Shown here in pieces: positions 210 to 50,903 of a stretch of 64,000 nucleotides of DNA; the first letter of the stretch is position 1, and every line of letters begins with the position of its first letter. Source of the DNA: an uncultured cyanobacterium (lineage in GTDB: Bacteria; Cyanobacteriota; Cyanobacteriia; PCC-9006; JAAUQQ01); assembly GCA_963718615.1 (NCBI GenBank), contig OY970368.1, positions 4,256,001 to 4,320,000 on the forward strand. Direction: 5' to 3'. Under the pieces are notes generated by a model. That model saw only the letters and a program-made list of their open reading frames with translations. It did no database searches and had not been told where the DNA came from. Made by a program: the position numbers and the translations under genes.

Positions 210-1820
210 TTAGAGCGAGAGGCGTACAGGGGTGCGGCTGGGCTTCAGCTCTACCTCGACCGGCAAAATCATCGATCGTCCCGTCATTTCAACGGGCTGG
301 GGCAGTTGCAAAATTTCCAAAATCGTCGGCGCAATATCTGCTAAGCGGCCATCTTCCCGCAGCCGCACATTAGTGCCATGACCCGGAATCTTGCGGCCTT
401 CCCCCTCTACCAAAATAAAGGGGACTAAATTGGAGGTGTGAGCGGTCCAGGGATTGCCATCCTCGTCGCGCATGTATTCGGCGTTGCCGTGGTCCGCTGT
501 GATAATGGCCGTACCGCCCACGGCGGCGATCGCCTGCAGCAAGCGCCCCAAACAGCGATCGACGACCTCAATGGCTTCGATCGCGGCCCCCATATTGCCT
601 GTATGCCCCACCATATCGGGGTTGGCATAGTTCATAACAATCAGCGCATACTCTTGACGATTGAGCGCCTCGATCACCGCCTGGGTGAGCCTGTCGGCTG
701 ACATGGCCGGGGCGCGATCGTAGGTCGCTACCTGGGGACTGGGAATGAGCTGTTGGTCTTGGCCCTTAAATTGCTTTTCGACCCCGCCATCAAAAAAGTA
801 GGTGACGTGGGGATATTTTTCGGTCTCCGCTGCTCTAAACTGCTTGAGTCCTTGCTTTGAGACTACTTCACCTAGGATGTTTTCATAGGTTTGCGGTGCA
901 AAGGCCACCTGGACGGGCAGGGTCTCGTCGTACTGCGTAAAGGTAACGAATCCTAAGGAGGGGATCAGCGTCCGTTCAAATCCCTTGAAATTGGGATCCA
1001 CAAAGGCCGCCGTTAGCTGCCTTGCCCGATCCGGTCTGAAATTAAAGAAAATGACGCCATCTCCCGGTTCTATCGCCCCCGGAGCCAAGCGCAGCGGCTG
1101 TACAAACTCATCAGTATGGCCTTCGTCATAGGCGGCTTGCAGGGCTTCCAGGGCTGACTGACCACACCCCGGACCCTCTTGAATCATCACTTCATAGGCC
1201 TTTTGGGTTCGATCCCAGCGGTGGTCTCGGTCCATGGCGTAGTAGCGGCCCGAAAGGGTCACCATGCGACCTATTCCCACTTTCTCGATATGGGTTTGGA
1301 TCGCGCGGAGAGCGTCAGCCGCTGCGGTTGGTTTGGTATCTCGACCATCGGTAATCACATGGAGACAAACATCCCCCATGCCTTCGGTTTTAGCCAGATC
1401 CATCAGGCCAAAGAGGTGGCTAAGATGGGAGTGGACGCCGCCATCAGAACACAAACCGACCAAATGCAATTTGCCATGGCGGGCGCGTACCGTTTGGCAG
1501 AGTTTCACCAGTTGAGGATTGTGGATCAGTGAACCATCTTCAACGGCATCTGAAATGCGCACTAATTCTTGAGAAACAATCCGGCCTGCACCAATGTTGA
1601 GGTGCCCCACTTCGGAATTGCCCATTTGGCCTTCGGGTAAGCCCACATCTTTGCCAGAAGCTCGAATTAAAGTATGCGGATAGGCTTGCCAAAGGCTATC
1701 CACAACAGGGCTATTTGCCTCTAAAATGGCGTTTCCATCTGAGTCTTCTCGATATCCCCAGCCATCCAAGATGATTAATACCACTGGGGAAATGGAAGAG
1801 GAAGAGGCAGGATTTGCCAT
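210..1820 (-). CDS. gpmI: 2,3-bisphosphoglycerate-independent phosphoglycerate mutase
   Basis: LIILDGWG, GQMGNSEVGH, SDGGVHSH, GRYYAMDRD, AETEKYPHVT, TADHGNAE motifs. Confidence 0.97.
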   Translation of the reverse strand: MANPASSSSISPVVLIILDGWGYREDSDGNAILEANSPVVDSLWQAYPHTLIRASGKDVGLPEGQMGNSEVGHLNIGAGRIVSQELVRISDAVEDGSLIHNPQLVKLCQTVRARHGKLHLVGLCSDGGVHSHLSHLFGLMDLAKTEGMGDVCLHVITDGRDTKPTAAADALRAIQTHIEKVGIGRMVTLSGRYYAMDRDHRWDRTQKAYEVMIQEGPGCGQSALEALQAAYDEGHTDEFVQPLRLAPGAIEPGDGVIFFNFRPDRARQLTAAFVDPNFKGFERTLIPSLGFVTFTQYDETLPVQVAFAPQTYENILGEVVSKQGLKQFRAAETEKYPHVTYFFDGGVEKQFKGQDQQLIPSPQVATYDRAPAMSADRLTQAVIEALNRQEYALIVMNYANPDMVGHTGNMGAAIEAIEVVDRCLGRLLQAIAAVGGTAIITADHGNAEYMRDEDGNPWTAHTSNLVPFILVEGEGRKIPGHGTNVRLREDGRLADIAPTILEILQLPQPVEMTGRSMILPVEVELKPSRTPVRLSL

Positions 1821-3835: not shown

Positions 3836-3913
3836 AGATTCTATTGGGAGGTTTAATCGGGACTCTAGCAGCCTTAGGAGGATTATGGTCTATCCTGCTG
3901 GTCTTTATCTTAC

Positions 3914-4359
3914 CGAAAATCACCGTAAAGCCCCTGGCTTCAGACATGGGGATATAAGGCGAGCGACCAAAGGGAGCAACTGGATGATGACGCTGCTGCG
4001 AGAATATTTTGACATGGTACTCTTGCATTAGTGGCGGGTAACCAACCACTTTAAAAACCCAATCGCCTCACGGCTGATGCTGCACCTTGACAAGTGAATC
4101 TATCGGGTTCTACTGCATAGTTCTAGTTCTTTCCCTCGCAGTGGGTAAAAGATTCAGAGGAGCTAGACGACCAGTATTTGGAACAGCGATTTGCTTGTTT
4201 CATCTGAAAAAAGGACTCGCACAAGCGCGAATAGGGTAGGGCATACCCGAATTAACGCTCCTGGAGAGTCCCACCTCTAGGTGGAGCACTGCAAGGTCCT
4301 TCATCTAAGTGGTCTCGCTGAAAGGAGAATCCCCTTGCTTTAGCTATGGGGAGTGTCAA
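3914..4359 (+). mobile_element. Non-autonomous (ORF-less) IS200/IS605-family mini-element
   Basis: TTAC (3910-3913), then LE with AAAG + CCCCTG..CATGGGG hairpin; RE GAAT-CCCC..GGGG-AGTG-TCAA ending 4359 (IS608-type guide/cleavage tetramers); LE is homologous to that at 49150-49216. Confidence 0.8.
4232..4359 (+). ncRNA. TnpB omega-RNA scaffold region (remnant of tnpB 3' end)
   Basis: GGGTAGGGCATACCC hairpin, AACGCTCCTGGAGAG, then RE hairpin ending TCAA; similar to 44678-44830 on the minus strand. Confidence 0.65.
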
Positions 4360-42113: not shown

Positions 42114-44645
42114 ATGCTGGATTGTATGTATCTACCTCAAGCTCATCCTATCCCCCTAGGCCCTAGGCGTAAACTACACAGCATTTTGCTTTCAGCTCTA
42201 GGAATATCGACCCTGGTGCTGGTACTGCAACAAATGGGACTGTTTCAAAACTTGGAACAGGATTGGTTGGATCAAATGGCTCAGCTCCGCCCTGCCGAAA
42301 CCGTTGCACCGCCGATCACACTGATCACAATGACCGAAGCCGATATTGCCCAACAACAGCAGTGGCCCCTGAGCGATGCCACGCTGGCTCAATTGCTCCA
42401 ACAGATCCAACAGGCTCAACCCCGCACCATTGGCTTAAATCTCTATCGAGACATTGCCATAGAGCCCGGTTCTGAGCGTTTGCAGCAGGTCTTTCAATCA
42501 ATGCCTAACCTGATTGGGATTGAAAAACTCATTGGTAATAGTACGGGACCTGCGATCGCCCCACCCCCCCAACTCCACCAGCAACAGCAAATTGCCGCCA
42601 GCGATGTTGTCTTGGATGGCGATGGCAAAATCCGTCGCCACCTGCTCTCTTTGCGATCGCCCCAAGGCAAAACTCAACTGAGCCTGGGAGCAAGGCTAGC
42701 GGTAGACTATCTCGCCCAGCAAGGCATTGAGCAGATTCCCCTAGATCCCAAAGGCTGTACCATCCGACTGGGTCAAGCCCTGATCCAGGCCCTTAAGCCG
42801 ACCTCCGGAGGCTATGTGCGCACGGATGCTGGGGGCTATCAAATTCTGTCCAACTTTTTGCCCCAAGCCTCAATGTCTCGTCTTACGCTGAGCCAGGTGT
42901 TAGCCGGAGAAGGGACTGAGCTAATGCGCGATCGCATCGTTCTGATTGGTGCCACAGCCCCTAGTCTACAGAATCATTTTTATACCTCCAGCACCCGAAC
43001 CCCCGAGGAAGGCTGGAGCGGCCTTGAAATTCAAGCGGATTTAGCGGGGCAACTGGTGTTGGCGGCGCTGCAAGGACGGCCCCTGCTGCGAGGGTTGCCG
43101 GAGGGTTTGGAATGGGGCTGGATTTTGCTCTGGGCCGGGGTGGGGGCGATCGTGGGGGTCCAATTGCGATCGTCGAGTCGGGCGCTTTGGTTCGGGGTAC
43201 CGCTGAGTCTGCTGGGGCTTTTGGGGATTTCCTACGGGCTGTTGCTCAATGGTTGGTGGGCGATCGCGATCGCGCCAGGGTTAGCCTGCTTGGGTTCGGC
43301 CTTGATGGCTCGTCAGTTGATGCTGTGGCAACTCATTCGACAGTCGCAAGCCCAACTGGATGAATATAACCGCAGTTTTGTGACGCAATTGGCCCATGAG
43401 GTTGAGGCTCGAACTCGGCTATGGTCGCTAGAAAAACAGGATTTGGTTGAGGCCAAGGAGGCGGCTGAAACGGCTAATCAAACCAAAAGTAAATTGTTGG
43501 CGCTGATTGGTCACGAACTGCGCACGCCACTCAACTCGATTGTGGGGTATGGACAGCTCATGGCCGATGAACCGGCACTGCCGGAGCAATATCGCACCAC
43601 GGTCAACACTATTAATCACAGCAGCGAATATTTGCTCGGTCTGGTGAATGAACTATTGGACTTCTCTAAAATCGAAGCAGACCAATTGCCGCTAAATTTG
43701 AGGACAGTGCATCTTCCGAGTCTACTCAAACAATTAGAAATCCTCTTTCAGCTGCAAGCCAAACAGCGTCGCTTGCGGCTGCGTTGCTCCCTAGACAATA
43801 CGTTACCTGAATCGGTTTGGGTGGATGAAATTAAGTTGCGCCAGGTCTTGATTAATCTACTCAACAATGCTCTGAAATTTACCCAGGCCGGCCATGTGAT
43901 TTTGCGTGCCTGGGGCAATGGCAGCATGTACTTTGAAGTAGAAGATACAGGTCCCGGCATTCCCCCCGCCGAACTCAGCCAAATCTTTGAACCCTTCCAG
44001 CAGGGCCAAGCCGCTAGCCCAGCCCATAGCCGGACCGGAAACCCCCAGGGGATGGGCCTAGGACTCTGGATTACTAATTCGCTGGTCAAGTTAATGGGGG
44101 GAGAGCTGACGGTGAATAGCCAGGTAGGCCGGGGAACTAATTTTCGGGTGGTGTTGCCGCTCTATCCAGCCCCCCAGACGCCTCACCCAGAGGCCGTTCA
44201 GGACCGGGCGATCGCCTCCTCCCCCGCTGATTTTCCCCTCTATCGAGTGTTGGTTGTGGATGACGTCACCTTAAACCGCCGCCTCCTGGTGAAATTGCTC
44301 GAAGAGGTTGGGGTCGAAGTGCGGGAAGCTTGTTCTGGGGAAGAGGCGATCGCCCTGTGGCAAACCTGGCACCCTCAGTTGATTTTGATGGATATGCGCA
44401 TGCCCGGTATGGATGGCTATGAAGCGGTGCGGCAGATTCGTCTTCAAGAACCATCGGAAGCTCCGCCCGTGCCGATTTTGGCGATCACGGCCAATGTTCT
44501 GCAATCGGAGCATGAGGCGGCGCTGATGGCGGGCTGCCAAGACATGATTACGAAACCCTTCCGGCGGCAGGACGTGTTGATCAAAATTGCCAATTATTTG
44601 GACAGCCAATTGGGTGGGGTGGAAACGGACTTTCATCAGAACTAG
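42114..44645 (+). CDS. CHASE2-domain hybrid sensor histidine kinase
   Basis: CHASE2 (WPLSD, YRDI, D.DGKIRR), 3 TM segments, HELRTPL, NALKFT, DTGPG, GLGL, REC domain DMRMP. Confidence 0.92.
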   Translation: MLDCMYLPQAHPIPLGPRRKLHSILLSALGISTLVLVLQQMGLFQNLEQDWLDQMAQLRPAETVAPPITLITMTEADIAQQQQWPLSDATLAQLLQQIQQAQPRTIGLNLYRDIAIEPGSERLQQVFQSMPNLIGIEKLIGNSTGPAIAPPPQLHQQQQIAASDVVLDGDGKIRRHLLSLRSPQGKTQLSLGARLAVDYLAQQGIEQIPLDPKGCTIRLGQALIQALKPTSGGYVRTDAGGYQILSNFLPQASMSRLTLSQVLAGEGTELMRDRIVLIGATAPSLQNHFYTSSTRTPEEGWSGLEIQADLAGQLVLAALQGRPLLRGLPEGLEWGWILLWAGVGAIVGVQLRSSSRALWFGVPLSLLGLLGISYGLLLNGWWAIAIAPGLACLGSALMARQLMLWQLIRQSQAQLDEYNRSFVTQLAHEVEARTRLWSLEKQDLVEAKEAAETANQTKSKLLALIGHELRTPLNSIVGYGQLMADEPALPEQYRTTVNTINHSSEYLLGLVNELLDFSKIEADQLPLNLRTVHLPSLLKQLEILFQLQAKQRRLRLRCSLDNTLPESVWVDEIKLRQVLINLLNNALKFTQAGHVILRAWGNGSMYFEVEDTGPGIPPAELSQIFEPFQQGQAASPAHSRTGNPQGMGLGLWITNSLVKLMGGELTVNSQVGRGTNFRVVLPLYPAPQTPHPEAVQDRAIASSPADFPLYRVLVVDDVTLNRRLLVKLLEEVGVEVREACSGEEAIALWQTWHPQLILMDMRMPGMDGYEAVRQIRLQEPSEAPPVPILAITANVLQSEHEAALMAGCQDMITKPFRRQDVLIKIANYLDSQLGGVETDFHQN

Positions 44646-44677
44646 GCGAGTTGCGCCGGATTTACCCACCGAAGCTG

Positions 44678-44830
44678 TTGACACTCCCCAGCCCTAAAGG
44701 GACGGGGATTCTTCTTTCATTGACGTGACTTTACCCCAATTGCCCAGAAGCAACTGACAAAGCGGTCTCATCTCCAGAAGCGTTCGGACCTACGATTCAA
44801 GTTCCCGTATCCCCTACGGTACTTAATCCC
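44678..44830 (-). ncRNA. TnpB omega-RNA scaffold region
   Basis: Overlaps tnpB 3' end and RE; AACGCTTCTGGAGA...GAAGAATCCCC...TCAA, similar to 4232-4359. Confidence 0.65.
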
Positions 44831-45105
44831 ACAGACAGGATGTTGAGTGCTGCATTATGGTCTCTCTCTAGCTCATAGCCACATTGACAAACATGGGTTC
44901 GAGTAGAGAGAGACTTTTTCACCATCGTCCCACAGCTTGAACAAACCTGAGAGGTGTATTGAGGCGGAACGGCAACCGTTGCCCGACCAAACACTACACC
45001 ACACCGTTCTAGCCAGACCCGGAACTGGTACCAACCGGCCTCAGAGATAGACTTCGCTAAGCAATGGTTCTTGACCATATCCTTGATTCTCAAGTCTTCG
45101 GCGAT
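44797..45105 (-). pseudogene. tnpB: tnpB C-terminal fragment (RuvC-II/III and Zn finger)
   Basis: IAEDLRIKDMVKNHCLAKSISEAGW, YTSQVCSSCG, RTHVCQCG, RDHNAALNIL. Confidence 0.9.
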
Positions 45106-45355
45106 CGAGTCGTTATACGGCTGTAGAGAGCCAGTCGGGCACTACCCAGCAATGCTCCGATGTTGTGGTACAAGCCGTCTCTCCTGACAATCTCGGTTGT
45201 TTGCAGTCATTGCCCGAAAACAAGGCAACAAGTGGTGGAGCCTCGTTCCTGCATCTCTATAGGGCTCACTTCAATTTGTTACATTTTTTAACTGGGAGAG
45301 CCTTTCTAGGGCATCATTTAGACAAAGGTTTCGATTCAGGTGAACATCCTGTACC

Positions 45356-46342
45356 ATGTCCACTGCTCGTCAAGTCCTCGCTCTTTTGAAGAGCCATATA
45401 GAAGGCGAAGAACAGCAGTTTTTTACTGTTGCGATGCAGGTTGCTGCTCATGAGGCACGTCAAGGACATGGAAAAGTTGCTCAGGAAATTCGGAGTTTAG
45501 TCGATCAAGCGAAAGACCAAAGATCTCAGTTTGTCAATAAGAAAGGTGGACCAATCCCCTTAATCCAGCCGAAGGGAGATTTACTTAACCTGCTGTCTGC
45601 CCGATATTCGGATTTGCGTCTGGCAGACATGGTGCTTTCTGAGAAATTGTATGAAAGGTTGATGAGGGTTGTAACTGAACAAGCAAACTCAAACCTTCTG
45701 AAAGAGCATAATCTGAAACCTCGTCGTAAGCTGCTCTTAGTGGGAGCACCGGGAACAGGTAAATCGATGACAGCCGCAGCGATCGCTGGAGAGTTAAAGA
45801 TCCCTCTCTTTACAGTGCTGTATGAGGGACTGTTCACAAAGTTCATGGGTGAAACAGCTACTCAACTAAAGTTGATTTTTGACGCAATGTCGTCTACTCG
45901 TGGGGTTTATTTCTTTGATGAGTTTGATGCACTTGGATCGCAGCGTTCTAGCAATAACGATGTTGGTGAGATTCGACGTGTTTTAAATTCTTGTTTACAA
46001 TTTTTGGAGAATGATGATAGCGATAGTTTGATTATTGCTGCAACCAATCATCCTGACCTCTTAGACAAGGCTCTCTACAGACGCTTTGATGACGTGATTC
46101 AATACGAGCTGCCTAGCTCAGAAGTTATAAAAAAATTGATTCAATCGCGTCTTGTGGCCTTTCGATTGGACTGGAAAATTTGGGATGGCATTCTGGAAGC
46201 CGCAGCAGGTTTAAGTCAGGCTGAAATTATTCGAGCGATTACGGAAGTCGCAAAGAATACTGTTCTAGAGAGTAGGAAAACGATTTTGGAAGATGAGCTA
46301 ATTACATCAGTTGTAGAGCGTAAATTGATGACTCACTGGTAA
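45356..46342 (+). CDS. AAA+ ATPase, IetA-like (partner of the S8 protease)
   Basis: MQVAAHEARQGHGKVA N-terminus, GAPGTGKS, YFFDEFDA, NDVGEIRRVLNS, RRFDD. Confidence 0.88.
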   Translation: MSTARQVLALLKSHIEGEEQQFFTVAMQVAAHEARQGHGKVAQEIRSLVDQAKDQRSQFVNKKGGPIPLIQPKGDLLNLLSARYSDLRLADMVLSEKLYERLMRVVTEQANSNLLKEHNLKPRRKLLLVGAPGTGKSMTAAAIAGELKIPLFTVLYEGLFTKFMGETATQLKLIFDAMSSTRGVYFFDEFDALGSQRSSNNDVGEIRRVLNSCLQFLENDDSDSLIIAATNHPDLLDKALYRRFDDVIQYELPSSEVIKKLIQSRLVAFRLDWKIWDGILEAAAGLSQAEIIRAITEVAKNTVLESRKTILEDELITSVVERKLMTHW

Positions 46343-46389
46343 ATGAGCTTATTGCTTAGAGTTGAAAAACCCATCTTTTCCTTTAATGT

Positions 46390-49005
46390 ATGTCCGAATC
46401 GCTGCGTAACTTACCCCATCTGAGTCTTCCTCATCATCCCTCTATTACAAGTCGGCAAGATTATACATATCCCAAGAAGGTAGTTGATAAACGTCCTAAC
46501 CCTGTACGAAATCGGGGAAGTCATTCTAGTAAACTTCGTTCTGATTTGGGTAATGTTTTGGCGGCTTTGGAACAGGAAAGGCAGTCATCTGAGTCCGAAG
46601 TAGATGCAGTGGGTGAACCTGGATTTTATTTAGATGTGGAGTTTAGCGCTTCTGAAAAGGACAAGATACTTCAAAGCTTAGAAAATCTTGGCTCTAAGAT
46701 TGAATTAATGTCAGTCACTGCTTCTCTGAAATTGGACATAAATTGTTATATAGTCCTAAAAATTGCGCTGTTTCTCATAGCTGATGAGGAATCTATAAGC
46801 CAAGAAAAACTATCACTCTTGACTTTGCTTCTGATTAGTCTGAAACGGCCCTACCTGGAAGCGACGCTGTTTGTTCCTGACACTAAGAAAAACTATTTTA
46901 AGGAAAAAATCACTACCTATGAACATGAGGAAACAAAAAAGGGTAAACCGAAGCATGAAGCTCTAGTTAGCCGCATAGAAGCCTTTTCCTTAGGCTTTAT
47001 TACTTCACTGTTTACCGATGAGAAGTCACTGTTTCCACAGGAGCAAAGTGTGGCGGTTTGGTGGGAGATATGGTTGAGAGGCGATCGAAAGGAGAATTTT
47101 GATACGATCTCTGAACGGCTGAATATTCGGGTTCAACCCCATTCCGTTAAATTTGTTGAACGTGAAGTGGTTTTAGCGCTGGCTAATGTTGTTCAGCTTG
47201 GACAAATTATCCGTAAGTGTGATGCGATCGCAGAACTCAGAATTGCGAAGGATCTACCATCGTTCTTTTTTGAGAATAATGAGCTTGAGCAACAGGCATG
47301 GATGAATGATTTATTGAATAGATGCGTATTTGAGCAATCTCCGAATGTCTCTGTATGTTTGTTGGATGGTGGTGTGATGAGAGTTCATCCATTGCTAGAA
47401 CATAGCCTTAACGTGGATGATATGCATAGCTATGAGCCAGCATGGGAGACTCACGATACTAGTGAAGGACATGGCACGAATATGTCTGGACTATTGATCT
47501 ATGGGGAACTATGTGAAGCTCTGGTTGGGTATCAAAAAATCGAGATTTCGCATTGCCTAGAATCAGTAAAAATACTTCCTCCTCAAGGAGAAAATGATCC
47601 TGCGCTGTATGGGTGGATCATGCAGGAAGGGATTAGCCGCGCTGAGATACAAGCTCCATGCCGAACACGGGTGATTTGTATGCCAGTAACCAGTGAGGGT
47701 TCAAATCGAGGGACGCCTTCCTCTTGGTCTGCGGCAATCGATAATATGTGCTTTGGTCGAGATAAAATCTCTGATGAATTGGTGCAAAGGTTAATAATTT
47801 TGCCAGTTGGTAATATTCGTGATGAGATCAATCGTGGGGATTATATTGCCAATAACGATAGTGCATCTGCTGAGAATCCGGCACAGTCTTGGAATGCGTT
47901 GGTCGTTGGGGCTTTTACCGAGAAGGTAAATATAGTTGATTCTAAATATCTCCATTGGCAGCCGATCGCGCCTGCTGGTGATTTATCACCTCGAAGTAGA
48001 ACGTCTTGTATCTGGGGCCGACAATGGCCTAATCGCCCGGATATCGTATTTGAAGGGGGAAATCTTGCGACGGATGGAGTTTGTGCGGGTGGGGTTTTGG
48101 ATGATTTGAGTTTGTTGACGGTTCATCACAAAGTTGGTCAGCGACTCTTTACGCTATTTAGTGATACCAGTGCAGCGACTGCTTTAGCGGGATATTTTGC
48201 AGCACAGATTCTGGTTCAAAATCCTGATTTTTGGCCGGAGACGGTGCGAGCTTTGATTGTTCACTCAGCGACTTGGACAGCGGCGATGCGAAAGTATTTT
48301 CTTGCTACACCACCACAGCAAAAGGACAAAAATATTCTGCTCAGGCGTTATGGATATGGTGTACCGAGTTTAGAAAAGGCACTTCGGAGTGCGAAGAATG
48401 ATTTGACAATGATTGTTGAAGATGGATTTCAGCCCTTTCAGAAGAAGGAAAATCAGTCCAAGGTGACAACTAAGGATATGAATCTTCATACCCTTCCCTG
48501 GCCGAAAAAGGAACTGGAATCTCTGGCTGAGAGGGATGTTGAGATGAGGGTGACACTTTCGTACTTTATCGAGTCGAATCCAGGAGAACGAGGTTGGGTT
48601 CGCCGCTATTCCTATCCTTCCTATGGGCTAAGATTTGCCACTAAAGATGCAACTGAGACACTTACAGATTTCAAGAAACGGATTACTAAGAATGCCCATG
48701 AGGAAGGGGATACAGTTTCTTTTAAAGAGGATAAAGGTTGGTTTTTAGGTACCGAATTGCGTAATAGAGGTTCCTTACATTCGGATATTTGGACGGGAAC
48801 TGCTGCTGATTTAGCTGCCAAGGATGCGATCGGTGTTTATCCAGTGGGAGGATGGTGGAAAGAGCGCCTTATACATAATCGATGGGACGAGCAGATTAGG
48901 TATGCGCTTATTGTTTCGATTCGGGTAACAGGGGAAGGGGCTGATATTTATACACCTGTTGAAACTTTGGTGAGGCAAACGCTGGCGATCGAGATTGAAA
49001 CTTAA
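46390..49005 (+). CDS. S8 family serine protease, IetS-like
   Basis: WWEIWL, VCLLDGGV (D), GHGTNMSG (H), PAQSWNAL, DTSAATA (S), WPETVRALIVHSA, YGYGVP, VTLSYFIE, YPVGGWWK; no signal peptide. Confidence 0.88.
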   Translation: MSESLRNLPHLSLPHHPSITSRQDYTYPKKVVDKRPNPVRNRGSHSSKLRSDLGNVLAALEQERQSSESEVDAVGEPGFYLDVEFSASEKDKILQSLENLGSKIELMSVTASLKLDINCYIVLKIALFLIADEESISQEKLSLLTLLLISLKRPYLEATLFVPDTKKNYFKEKITTYEHEETKKGKPKHEALVSRIEAFSLGFITSLFTDEKSLFPQEQSVAVWWEIWLRGDRKENFDTISERLNIRVQPHSVKFVEREVVLALANVVQLGQIIRKCDAIAELRIAKDLPSFFFENNELEQQAWMNDLLNRCVFEQSPNVSVCLLDGGVMRVHPLLEHSLNVDDMHSYEPAWETHDTSEGHGTNMSGLLIYGELCEALVGYQKIEISHCLESVKILPPQGENDPALYGWIMQEGISRAEIQAPCRTRVICMPVTSEGSNRGTPSSWSAAIDNMCFGRDKISDELVQRLIILPVGNIRDEINRGDYIANNDSASAENPAQSWNALVVGAFTEKVNIVDSKYLHWQPIAPAGDLSPRSRTSCIWGRQWPNRPDIVFEGGNLATDGVCAGGVLDDLSLLTVHHKVGQRLFTLFSDTSAATALAGYFAAQILVQNPDFWPETVRALIVHSATWTAAMRKYFLATPPQQKDKNILLRRYGYGVPSLEKALRSAKNDLTMIVEDGFQPFQKKENQSKVTTKDMNLHTLPWPKKELESLAERDVEMRVTLSYFIESNPGERGWVRRYSYPSYGLRFATKDATETLTDFKKRITKNAHEEGDTVSFKEDKGWFLGTELRNRGSLHSDIWTGTAADLAAKDAIGVYPVGGWWKERLIHNRWDEQIRYALIVSIRVTGEGADIYTPVETLVRQTLAIEIET

Positions 49006-49028
49006 GTGCCAGAGAGTAGATAGGCGAT

Positions 49029-49093
49029 ATGGCTTCGTCAATCGCAGACAATTGCTGAATATTGGTTCTGGCTTTGAATTCTAGGACAAGCAT
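49029..49093 (-). pseudogene. tnpB: tnpB N-terminal fragment (~22 codons)
   Basis: MLVLEFKARTNIQQLSAIDEAI resembles cyanobacterial TnpB N-termini; lies just inside the LE. Confidence 0.75.
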
Positions 49094-49262
49094 CTATTTG
49101 TTCTAGCACGTTTATCATCAAACATATTGAGGAGAGCTATGTATGGACATTGCTCCCTTTTCGTTGCACGGATTATATCCCCATTCTTGAAAGCAGGGGT
49201 CTTACGCCGATTTCTGATAAAATCGCAGGACAATTCCTCGGGTATGGGTGGAGGGTGAAAGC

Positions 49263-50903
49263 ATGTATTGGCGAAGATTTTCAACAGGGTCGCGGGGCTG
49301 GATGGGCCGCTTTGCAGGGGTCGTCATTTTGTGCGCCATGCTGGTGGTGGGGTGTCAAAGTCCCAATCCTCAGTCGGGTGCGCCTGGGGCGGGGGGAAAT
49401 TCCAGCGGAAATCCCAATCGAATTACCCTGGGAACCACTGCCAAGGTGCGGACGCTAGATCCAGCCGATTCCTACGAGATTTTGTCAGGGAATTTGCTCT
49501 ACAACTTGGGCGATCGCCTCTACACAACCGAACCCAACCAAACCACTCTAGTGCCTCAGTTGGCCACAGCGCTGCCCCAGATTAGCGAGGATGGCTTGAC
49601 CTACACCATTCCCCTGCGCGAGGGCGTGGTGTTTCATGACGGCACCCCGTTTAATGCCGAGGCCATGGCCTTTTCACTCAACCGCTTCATCCAAAATGGG
49701 GGGGACCCGGCGTCGTTGCTGGGGAATTTAGTGAACTCTGTTAATGCCACTAGCCCTACCGAATTGACCATTCAACTCAAGGCTCCCTTTGCGGCATTTC
49801 CTTCAATCTTGGCGTTTCCCGGTCTTTGCGCAGTGTCGCCCCAGTCCTACGAAATAGGTGCAGGCAAGTTCAAACCCCAGGAATTTGTCGGGACTGGACC
49901 GTACAAATTGGCGCAGTACGGTAACGACTCGATTAGGCTGGATACGAATCCGGATTATTGGGGTGAAAAACCGGCCAATGAAGGGGTTGATATTCAGATT
50001 TTTGCCAGTTCTTCCAATCTGTTCAATGCGGCTAAAACCGGTGCGGTGGATGCGGCCTACCAAAGTCTTGACCCCAATCAGGTCAAAAGTCTTCAGGAAA
50101 ACGCAGCACTGCAAACCGTTGAAAGCGAGGGCTTAGGAATTCACTATTTGAGTGTGAATGTGCGGAGTGCACCGCTGGATAAACCGGAAGTTCGGCAGGC
50201 GCTGGCGCTGTTGATTGACCGAAAATTGCTGAGCGATCGCGTGTTCCAAGGTCAGGTAGAACCGCTCTATAGTTTAGTTCCAGCCAGCGTCGAGGGTTCC
50301 AAGCCCGTGTTTGAAGCAGGGGATGGCGATGCCGATGCCGCGAAAGCCTTGCTGGAAAAAGCGGGATTTTCTGAGGCGAATCCCCTGCAACTTGACTTCT
50401 GGTATCGGTCTAATTTATCGAGTAATGTGCAAGCTGCGAATACGATTAAGGCGATCGCCGATCAAAAGCTACCGGGTTTAGTTCAGCTCAAACTTCAAGG
50501 GGTTGAATCCGCAACGGCCTATGAAAACCTAGACAAAGGAGCCTACCCTATTTTTATGCTGGACTGGACGCCAGACTACCTGGATGCCGATAGCTATTTG
50601 CAGCCCTTTATGGCCTGTGAAGAAGGCTCTGCGGCAGCAGGCTGTCAATCGGGTGAAAGTGCCTATCAAGGGTCGTTCTATTACAACGATCGGGTGAATC
50701 AACTGATTGCTCAAGAGCGCACGCTCACCGATGCCGCAGCGCGGGATAAAATCCTAATAGAACTACAGGATATCCTGGCCAAGGATGTGCCGTTTATTCC
50801 CCTGTGGAATAGCAAGGACTATCTGTTTGTCCAAAAGAATGTGCAAGGTGCAGCAATTTTACCAACTTCTCAAATTCCCTTTAAGGCCCTAAAAAAAGGG
50901 TAG
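49263..50903 (+). CDS. ABC transporter substrate-binding lipoprotein (peptide/nickel, family 5)
   Basis: Lipobox LVVGC, TLDPAD, LREGVVFHDGTPFNAEA, GTGPY. Confidence 0.92.
   Translation: MYWRRFSTGSRGWMGRFAGVVILCAMLVVGCQSPNPQSGAPGAGGNSSGNPNRITLGTTAKVRTLDPADSYEILSGNLLYNLGDRLYTTEPNQTTLVPQLATALPQISEDGLTYTIPLREGVVFHDGTPFNAEAMAFSLNRFIQNGGDPASLLGNLVNSVNATSPTELTIQLKAPFAAFPSILAFPGLCAVSPQSYEIGAGKFKPQEFVGTGPYKLAQYGNDSIRLDTNPDYWGEKPANEGVDIQIFASSSNLFNAAKTGAVDAAYQSLDPNQVKSLQENAALQTVESEGLGIHYLSVNVRSAPLDKPEVRQALALLIDRKLLSDRVFQGQVEPLYSLVPASVEGSKPVFEAGDGDADAAKALLEKAGFSEANPLQLDFWYRSNLSSNVQAANTIKAIADQKLPGLVQLKLQGVESATAYENLDKGAYPIFMLDWTPDYLDADSYLQPFMACEEGSAAAGCQSGESAYQGSFYYNDRVNQLIAQERTLTDAAARDKILIELQDILAKDVPFIPLWNSKDYLFVQKNVQGAAILPTSQIPFKALKKG

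Follow-up and report, generated by a model that had tools for sequence, protein, structure and literature searches.

How did a two-gene defence operon come to occupy the interior of an IS200/IS605-type insertion sequence (IS), and can the resulting hybrid still move? The question is raised by a 64,000-nucleotide stretch of an uncultured cyanobacterial genome (GCA_963718615.1, contig OY970368.1, positions 4,256,001 to 4,320,000; hereafter the window), in which the ends of an IS and both extremities of its tnpB gene surround an ietA-ietS pair at positions 44678..49216. Elements of the IS200/IS605 family are seen as minimal and free of cargo; their transposase, TnpA, requires only the hairpins at the ends, and TnpB with its omega-RNA restores lost copies. 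An earlier, sequence-only reading of the window proposed that the element is a vehicle for the defence pair, mobilised by TnpA in trans and retained with the help of a trans-acting TnpB. Our analysis confirms the anatomy on which that proposal was built and favours another history: a one-off illegitimate replacement inside an IS copy, with the hybrid now stranded (probability about 0.7).

An exact insertion of a single IS lineage

The element is one precise IS200/IS605-type insertion on the minus strand, 3' of the tetranucleotide TTAT. Read along that strand, TTAT is followed by the left end, an ATG with 22 tnpB-like codons, ~3.9 kb of AT-richer DNA, the 3' part of tnpB and the right end (Table 1), and each of the parts listed by the sequence-only reading was found where that reading had placed it. 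The guanine-plus-cytosine (GC) content drops from ~0.55 in the flanks to 0.38-0.50 inside the element, with most values at 0.39-0.45.

The outer boundaries are exact. Without 44678..49216, the flanks join as ...CTG directly followed by ATAAAATCGCAG..., and excision in silico gives ...CTGATAAAATCGCAG..., which is unbroken between the orthologous kinase and solute-binding-protein genes of two relatives, G001 and G003, the latter belonging to the same family as the source genome. In both (loci L009 and L028, respectively) the two genes are adjacent and the spacer reads ...CCTGATAAAATCGCAG... without interruption, so that the empty site for which a search had been suggested exists in two relatives. 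The window element is placed between CTG and ATAAAA, with no flank bases gained or lost and no target duplication; TTAT abuts the left end and CAG the right end, and a 3-nucleotide CAG/CTG ambiguity of the boundary remains. With TTAT here and TTAC for both the G003 element and a mini-element described below, the target of the lineage is TTAY on three cases. No ietAS genes lie at the orthologous locus in G001 or G003; an operon already present there without IS ends, named beforehand as an observation that would count against an IS-borne origin, is not seen in either genome.

Both tnpB pieces and both ends derive, as judged by alignment, from a single IS lineage. The intact element of G003 (contig C93, locus L008) encodes a 130-residue Y1 transposase (PF01797 Y1_Tnp, 5.5e-44) and, divergently, a 401-residue TnpB (OrfB_IS605, 1.2e-28; TNB, 1.6e-19). 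The window element aligns with it in three pieces, colinear and on the same strand: the right end together with the 3' part of tnpB (386/444 nucleotides), the first 22 codons, and the left end (58/74). That one element matches both tnpB pieces also answers the concern that the two might stem from different IS lineages, and, together with the empty site, it upholds the description of the locus as an IS200/IS605 element whose tnpB core was replaced. Another G003 contig (C144) was considered as the site of a closer cognate IS and rejected: what it carries, where the contig runs out, is the terminal part of a further copy of the element on C93 (100% amino-acid identity to G003 TnpB residues 361-401). 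Beside the G003 reference IS (L008 ~383..1136) lie cas1-like and cas2-like open reading frames (ORFs), named by the look of their translations only.

Relative to the G003 protein, TnpB residues ~23-261 (~240 codons) are gone, including the entire OrfB_IS605 domain. The C-terminal part survives in a 98-residue ORF (44797..45093) that retains the Cas12f1-like_TNB match, and the tnpB tail ends at a TGA where the sibling copy in the same genome and G003 have TGG. A tnpA gene is missing: the gap between the left-end match and the ATG is 56 nucleotides here, versus about 444 nucleotides, with tnpA, in the G003 element. The list of contents drawn up by the sequence-only reading was thus right as far as it went, and is to be extended by the missing tnpA and by the TGA. 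In most relatives in the class the match with the G003 query begins at the tnpB start, without detectable tnpA, which suggests that the ancestor of the window element was likely a tnpB-only IS. Lack of tnpA makes the element non-autonomous and leaves it a member of its family, many members of which are tnpB-only.

Table 1. Features of the hybrid element and of related elements in the same genome (window positions unless a genome position is given; G000:C1 denotes the source genome)
Feature	Positions	Strand	Remarks
Target (target-adjacent motif) tetranucleotide TTAT	49217..49220	-	directly 5' of the left end; outside the element
Left end, imperfect palindrome	49140..49216	-	CCCC 49199-49196 / GGGG 49182-49179; outer stem 49209-49207 / 49171-49169
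tnpB 5' remnant, ATG at 49093 and first 22 codons	49028..49093	-	55/65 nucleotides, 86% amino-acid identity versus G003 TnpB residues 1-22
Foreign cargo, ~3.9 kb, GC 0.438	45119..49027	+	ietA upstream region, ietA, ietS, about 20 nucleotides beyond
ietA, AAA+ ATPase, 328 residues	45356..46342	+	PF00004 1.6e-28; PADLOC IetA 6.2e-71 (residues 2-323)
ietS, S8 subtilase-family protease, 871 residues	46390..49005	+	PF00082 2.5e-55; PADLOC IetS 6.8e-26 (residues 320-863)
tnpB 3' remnant, ~107 codons, TNB/zinc-finger and RuvC-III part	44797..45118	-	PF07282 (Cas12f1-like_TNB) 1.5e-19; 85% amino-acid identity versus G003 TnpB residues 262-389
Putative omega-RNA scaffold region and right end	44678..44880	-	overlaps tnpB tail; right-end hairpin 44707..44686; terminal ...GTGTCAA ends at 44678
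Putative omega-RNA guide flank, starts CAGCTTCGG...	44658..44677	-	directly 3' of the right end; function suggested by position
Non-autonomous mini-element, 446 bp, same lineage	3914..4359	+	TTAC at 3910..3913; left end, omega-RNA-like scaffold, right-end hairpin ending GGGGAGTGTCAA; no protein gene
Resident IS605-type copies	G000:C1 ~714281, 1611575, 3021214, 3063289, 4040185, 4881822		near-identical

End hairpins and omega-RNA region

The left end matches that of the mini-element at 49/64 nucleotides, and its outer stem shows a GG/CC to CC/GG swap between the two copies. The fold energies of the end hairpins are unexceptional (z +1.2 and -0.5 versus shuffles); support for them comes from conservation and from such compensatory changes; the hairpins described by the sequence-only reading are upheld on those grounds, not on their stability.

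The sequence of the putative omega-RNA region is retained, as had been claimed. The last 143 nucleotides before the end of the right end are 95% identical to a G003 copy, against 87% for the full 444-nucleotide piece, and the fold is common to the mini-element. A consensus fold of the window element, a second fragment in the genome, the G003 element and the mini-element holds 54 pairs, 15 of them changed on both sides; three of the four sequences are near-identical, so that the fold amounts in effect to one comparison with the diverged mini-element, and support for a shared omega-RNA fold is moderate. An Rfam scan of 44400..49500 at E<=1 matched no family. The guide start proposed earlier (CAGCTTCGG...) is correct by its position.

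The cargo is a foreign IetA/IetS operon

The cargo genes are ietA and ietS only. Both frames are open and lie on the strand opposite to tnpB, with ietS directly downstream of ietA after a gap of 47 nucleotides, and the strong PADLOC matches (Table 1) agree with the earlier naming of the pair. IetAS was first described on an Agrobacterium Ti plasmid. In a published account, the protease is the toxin and the ATPase the antitoxin, and the pair has anti-phage activity by a mechanism that is unknown (PMC13069673). Compared with the cassettes of two cyanobacterial genome records (L019 and L020, below), dN/dS (the ratio of nonsynonymous to synonymous substitution rates) is 0.09-0.14 for ietA and 0.20 for ietS. 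The pair looks functional because both frames are open and dN/dS is 0.09-0.20, although most of the divergence compared may predate capture.

An in-frame segment of ~111 extra nucleotides occurs in the N-terminal region of ietS (window 46727..46857, codons ~113-156). It is present in L022 and L023 and not in L019, L020 or L021. A recent ~111-nucleotide insertion breaking ietS was considered and rejected: L022 and L023 align straight across the segment, which marks a length variant within the family.

Only one copy of the cargo is present in the 6.1-Mb genome, from which it differs in composition (GC 0.438 versus 0.523); none of 40 relatives carries the cargo DNA (0/40). A search with IetS returned two genome records (L019, a Synechococcales metagenome-assembled genome, and L020, Almyronema epifaneia) and six metagenome loci, four of which are close: L021-L023, at 82-86% amino-acid identity over the full length, and the partial L024, at 90% over residues 416-870. 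At the DNA level the cassettes of L019-L024 are 85-93% identical to the cargo. In five of these six, homology ends near the operon, starting at ~45266-45275 where the upstream side is present and stopping at ~49005-49016, and the neighbourhoods differ, with glycosyltransferases and a PNPOx-like gene, a nucleotidyltransferase/HEPN-like pair, or a Uma2-like gene. L020 alone extends ~155 nucleotides further upstream and ~17 nucleotides downstream; it is 86-90% identical over window 45113-49024 and reaches both junctions, at each of which IS homology and L020 homology overlap by 2-5 nucleotides only (microhomology). By these comparisons the cargo is foreign and comes from another cyanobacterial lineage. 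The junctions point to a piece of an L020-like locus having been joined into tnpB by illegitimate recombination at the level of microhomology.

Among the matches listed from a plasmid collection, the best cyanobacterial ietAS plasmids are 65-67% identical in nucleotides and have no IS ends; one record beyond those matches has a short match of at least 99%. On the plus strand, the 10-mer GGCGATCGAG lies at 45100, 18 nucleotides outside the left cargo junction, and at 48984, 44 nucleotides inside the right one, and the 6.1-Mb genome as a whole has 146 copies. Relatives have GTAGGCAATCAAG in place of the left copy. This was noticed post hoc and could reflect either a coincidence close to HIP1-like sites or a footprint of the joining.

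Probable one-off replacement and stranding of the hybrid

We favour the following course of events. A tnpB-only member of the IS200/IS605 family would have inserted by single-strand transposition 3' of TTAT, in the short spacer between the kinase and solute-binding-protein genes. A single illegitimate recombination, in this genome or in a previous host, would have swapped ~240 tnpB codons (residues ~23-261, with the OrfB_IS605 core) for 3.9 kb of lower-GC cyanobacterial DNA, bringing in, on the strand opposite to tnpB, the ietA-ietS operon together with its own upstream region. The working part today would be IetAS, an S8 protease effector restrained by an AAA+ ATPase, which most likely acts as a toxin-antitoxin or abortive-infection defence module. 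What remains of the IS (left end, 22 codons, 3' tnpB, omega-RNA scaffold and right end) would be a relic; as its ends look intact, a cognate TnpA could in principle still excise the unit. The hybrid appears stranded because both cognate enzymes, TnpA and TnpB, are missing from the genome. This one-off, now-stranded reading is the better supported because the unit is single-copy, no second instance appeared in any collection searched, and no partners are present. The exact insertion fits both possible orders of events: an intact IS that landed and was hollowed out later, or a hybrid that formed elsewhere and was then transposed in.

Several observations weigh against a stranded, one-off product. 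Preservation is good at both ends and in the omega-RNA scaffold, and one TGA is the sole visible decay of the shell, as would also be expected of a recently mobile non-autonomous element; the tnpB 3' piece has a dN/dS of 0.12-0.13 versus relatives. Since most class relatives of the lineage lack a detectable tnpA, dependence on TnpA in trans is normal for it and is no sign of death in itself. The resident IS605-type family of this genome (below) has the same first eight left-end nucleotides (CAGAAATC) and the same terminal GTCAA as the studied element, and cross-mobilisation by the resident enzymes is therefore conceivable; nothing supports it. In the 64-kb window GGCGATCGAG occurs solely within 45 nucleotides of the two junctions, a placement that the simple model of a single joining event leaves unexplained. 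Finally, the surveys described next are samples only (400 genomes at two candidates each, eight loci, four runs).

Searches for the hybrid as a mobile unit

The leading alternative is that the hybrid formed elsewhere and reached the TTAT site by TnpA transposition, as a 4.5-kb non-autonomous unit. We consider this unlikely. The insertion is exact with both ends intact, as a transposed unit should be, yet the same exactness is equally expected of an intact IS hollowed out later. The lineage does yield non-autonomous derivatives that keep the left end, omega scaffold and right end, as the 446-bp mini-element after TTAC illustrates. Moreover, the shell is 12-13% diverged from the other lineage copy in the genome, and it therefore represents a separate arrival and not a local duplicate.

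What is missing is a second instance. In 40 relatives there was no junction-crossing match. In 400 further class genomes, 12 matched at E<=1e-20 and none did so across 45118/45119 or 49027/49028; here and in the 150-genome survey below, the top two candidates per genome were scored. The IS part was found alone in five of these class genomes (G003, G236, G252, G264 and G367) and the cargo part alone in seven (G112, G121, G271, G296, G302, G347 and G394), the two never together. IS ends were likewise absent from the cassette-bearing loci, none of eight showing DNA similarity to the IS parts or a tblastn match to G003 TnpA or TnpB. A search of 150 class genomes with the intact G003 IS, for relatives split by cargo, gave no pair of pieces lying multiple kilobases apart, a weak result with two candidates scored in each.

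Metagenome runs gave the same picture. No junction-bridging contig was present among the records listed for runs X1, X2, X3 and X8, whose data are contigs in which starts, ends and expression are unreadable and uncovered parts carry no weight. In X1, X3 and X8, cassette contigs cover 45274..49016 and then run into unlike sequence. X1 also has a separate contig over 44678..45100, and loose ends at 49052 and 49093 that lead into ordinary tnpB and tnpA-side sequence resembling G003; X3 has a loose end at 45100, beyond which the sequence departs from that of the window; X8 has depth over the IS parts. X2 yielded four short cargo contigs at depth 2-3, uninformative on the junctions; three are identical to the cargo and the fourth shows one difference. 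No sequencing run contained more than 0.10 of the sampled words.

Taken with the single copy in the genome, these results leave the idea of a working vehicle without a second example in 40 relatives, 400 class genomes, eight cassette loci or four runs. In the parts of the literature available to us there was likewise no IS200/IS605 element with multi-kilobase cargo, defence genes included, though supplementary catalogues of TnpB/IS605 loci could hold such cases. Less probable still is the fuller form of the proposal, in which a non-autonomous IS200/IS605 element carried the 3.9-kb defence operon between genomes and kept its omega-RNA for restoration by a cognate TnpB of the new host. If true, it would be the first defence-carrying 'transporter' form of a normally cargo-free family, and the 446-bp mini-element, with left end, omega scaffold and right end, would be a cargo-free version of the same strategy.

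Partner enzymes and other copies in the genome

A profile search of the genome found PF07282 at 12 places and PF01797 at nine, and the genome has eight other full-length TnpB genes and seven strong TnpA genes. None of them is cognate: amino-acid identity to the G003 proteins is 28-34% for the full-length TnpBs and 35-39% for the TnpAs. The close TnpB matches in the genome are the window remnant and a fragment at G000 799796..800341 (97% amino-acid identity over 180 residues). The fragment belongs to a lineage remnant at G000:C1:799777..801642 (L002), which holds the right end and the last ~180 tnpB codons; at the nucleotide level it shares 98% identity with the G003 element and only 88% with the element studied here, and it is truncated upstream by a gene for a 425-residue DDE_Tnp_1 / DDE_Tnp_1_assoc transposase. 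Complete right-end motifs of the lineage number three in the genome (the studied element, the fragment and the mini-element) and left-end-like motifs two. A 128-nucleotide relic of the omega scaffold, 85% identical, lies at G000:C1:3245504..3245631 and stops before the right-end hairpin, and a possible relic of the right-end tail is found at G000:C1:2316103..2316114.

The genome also harbours a resident IS605-type family of six near-identical copies (Table 1), with divergent tnpA and a 398-codon tnpB, a left end that starts CAGAAATCTCCGC after CTAC and a right end that ends GAGCGTCAA. This CTAC-targeting family is evidently the active one in this genome; its hairpins and target differ from those of the studied element. 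The copy at 4881822 seems to be inserted in the left-end region of another element.

These findings bear on the idea of an active double retention, in which the omega-RNA would guide a trans-acting TnpB to cut empty sites while a resident TnpA mobilises the unit. The scaffold and guide position are intact, other TnpB and TnpA genes are plentiful, and one study describes how TnpB of IS605-family elements homes at vacant sites (10.1101/2023.11.20.567912). The resident proteins are nevertheless far from the cognate ones, the omega and right-end regions of the resident TnpBs show no detected DNA similarity to those of the studied element, the resident family's hairpins and CTAC target are different, and 3.9 kb of antisense cargo now separates the promoter side of tnpB from the scaffold. 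We therefore regard such retention as very improbable here, and neither the mobilisation nor the TnpB-based retention envisaged by the sequence-only reading found its enzyme in this genome.

Equally improbable is a chance arrangement in which two independent IS copies or fragments flank a defence islet: beyond the general frequency of IS fragments in the genome nothing speaks for it, whereas both halves find their best match in the same G003 element, with order and strand preserved, and comparison with the empty site shows that together they make exactly one insertion, the flanks having neither gained nor lost a base. An assembly chimera, with junctions absent from the cell, is hardly credible: the genome is one closed 6.1-Mb contig with a 100% complete score, both junctions lie in unique sequence, and three of the four short X2 cargo contigs are identical, the fourth having a single difference.

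Genomic neighbourhood

The neighbouring genes encode a CHASE2 hybrid histidine kinase (42114..44645) and an SBP_bac_5 solute-binding protein of an ABC transporter (49248..50903). A motif, CCTGATAAAATCGCAG(G/A)AC, is conserved upstream of the solute-binding-protein gene in three genomes (window 49214..49235; L009; L028) and is split by the IS in the window. A scan of 44500..49400 for promoters and terminators was at shuffle level (eight promoter-like sites versus a mean of 8.0, three terminator-like sites versus 4.3) and is uninformative on the expression of ietAS or of an omega-RNA. With no terminator-like site behind ietS, transcription of ietAS may run on into the transporter operon.

Significance and comparison with known systems

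If the hybrid arose by a one-off recombination, its interest hardly goes beyond that of a neat example of a defence operon landing in the debris of mobile elements. Should the unit be able to move, single-strand transposition would offer a route by which defence genes can spread, and the element a natural template for TnpA-based cargo delivery. Present evidence falls short of showing mobility of the unit, and the hybrid is a well-defined substrate for a simple excision test.

Among known systems, the shell most resembles tnpB-only and non-autonomous members of IS200/IS605, groups that we take to correspond to the ISfinder labels 'IS1341-like' and 'PATE/MITE-like', respectively. It shares with them subterminal imperfect palindromes, insertion 3' of a fixed tetranucleotide (TTAY) without target duplication, a right end ending TCAA, a putative omega-RNA scaffold overlapping the tnpB 3' end, and dependence on TnpA in trans. 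It differs from tnpB-only elements in that tnpB is cut to 22 plus ~107 codons and a 3.9-kb foreign operon in the opposite orientation fills the interior, whereas known non-autonomous derivatives of the family are deletion products of a few hundred base pairs, as is the 446-bp mini-element. The cargo resembles IetAS in gene order, with the AAA+ ATPase gene preceding the S8 protease gene in one operon, and in its strong PADLOC matches. Unlike the pair of the Ti plasmid, it is chromosomal, cyanobacterial and known from sequence alone; it is 65-67% identical in nucleotides to plasmid-borne cyanobacterial pairs, and its IetS carries the N-terminal ~111-nucleotide length variant common to L022 and L023. 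Passenger-carrying 'transporter IS' and IStrons, the latter with IS605-type ends, likewise have IS ends around an interior unrelated to transposition (for IStrons, in part after 10.1101/2023.11.20.567912); those occur in several copies with movement shown or inferred, whereas the present element is single-copy with no sign of movement. Its parts, an IS200/IS605 remnant and an IetAS operon, are thus already known, and it is their combination that is unusual.

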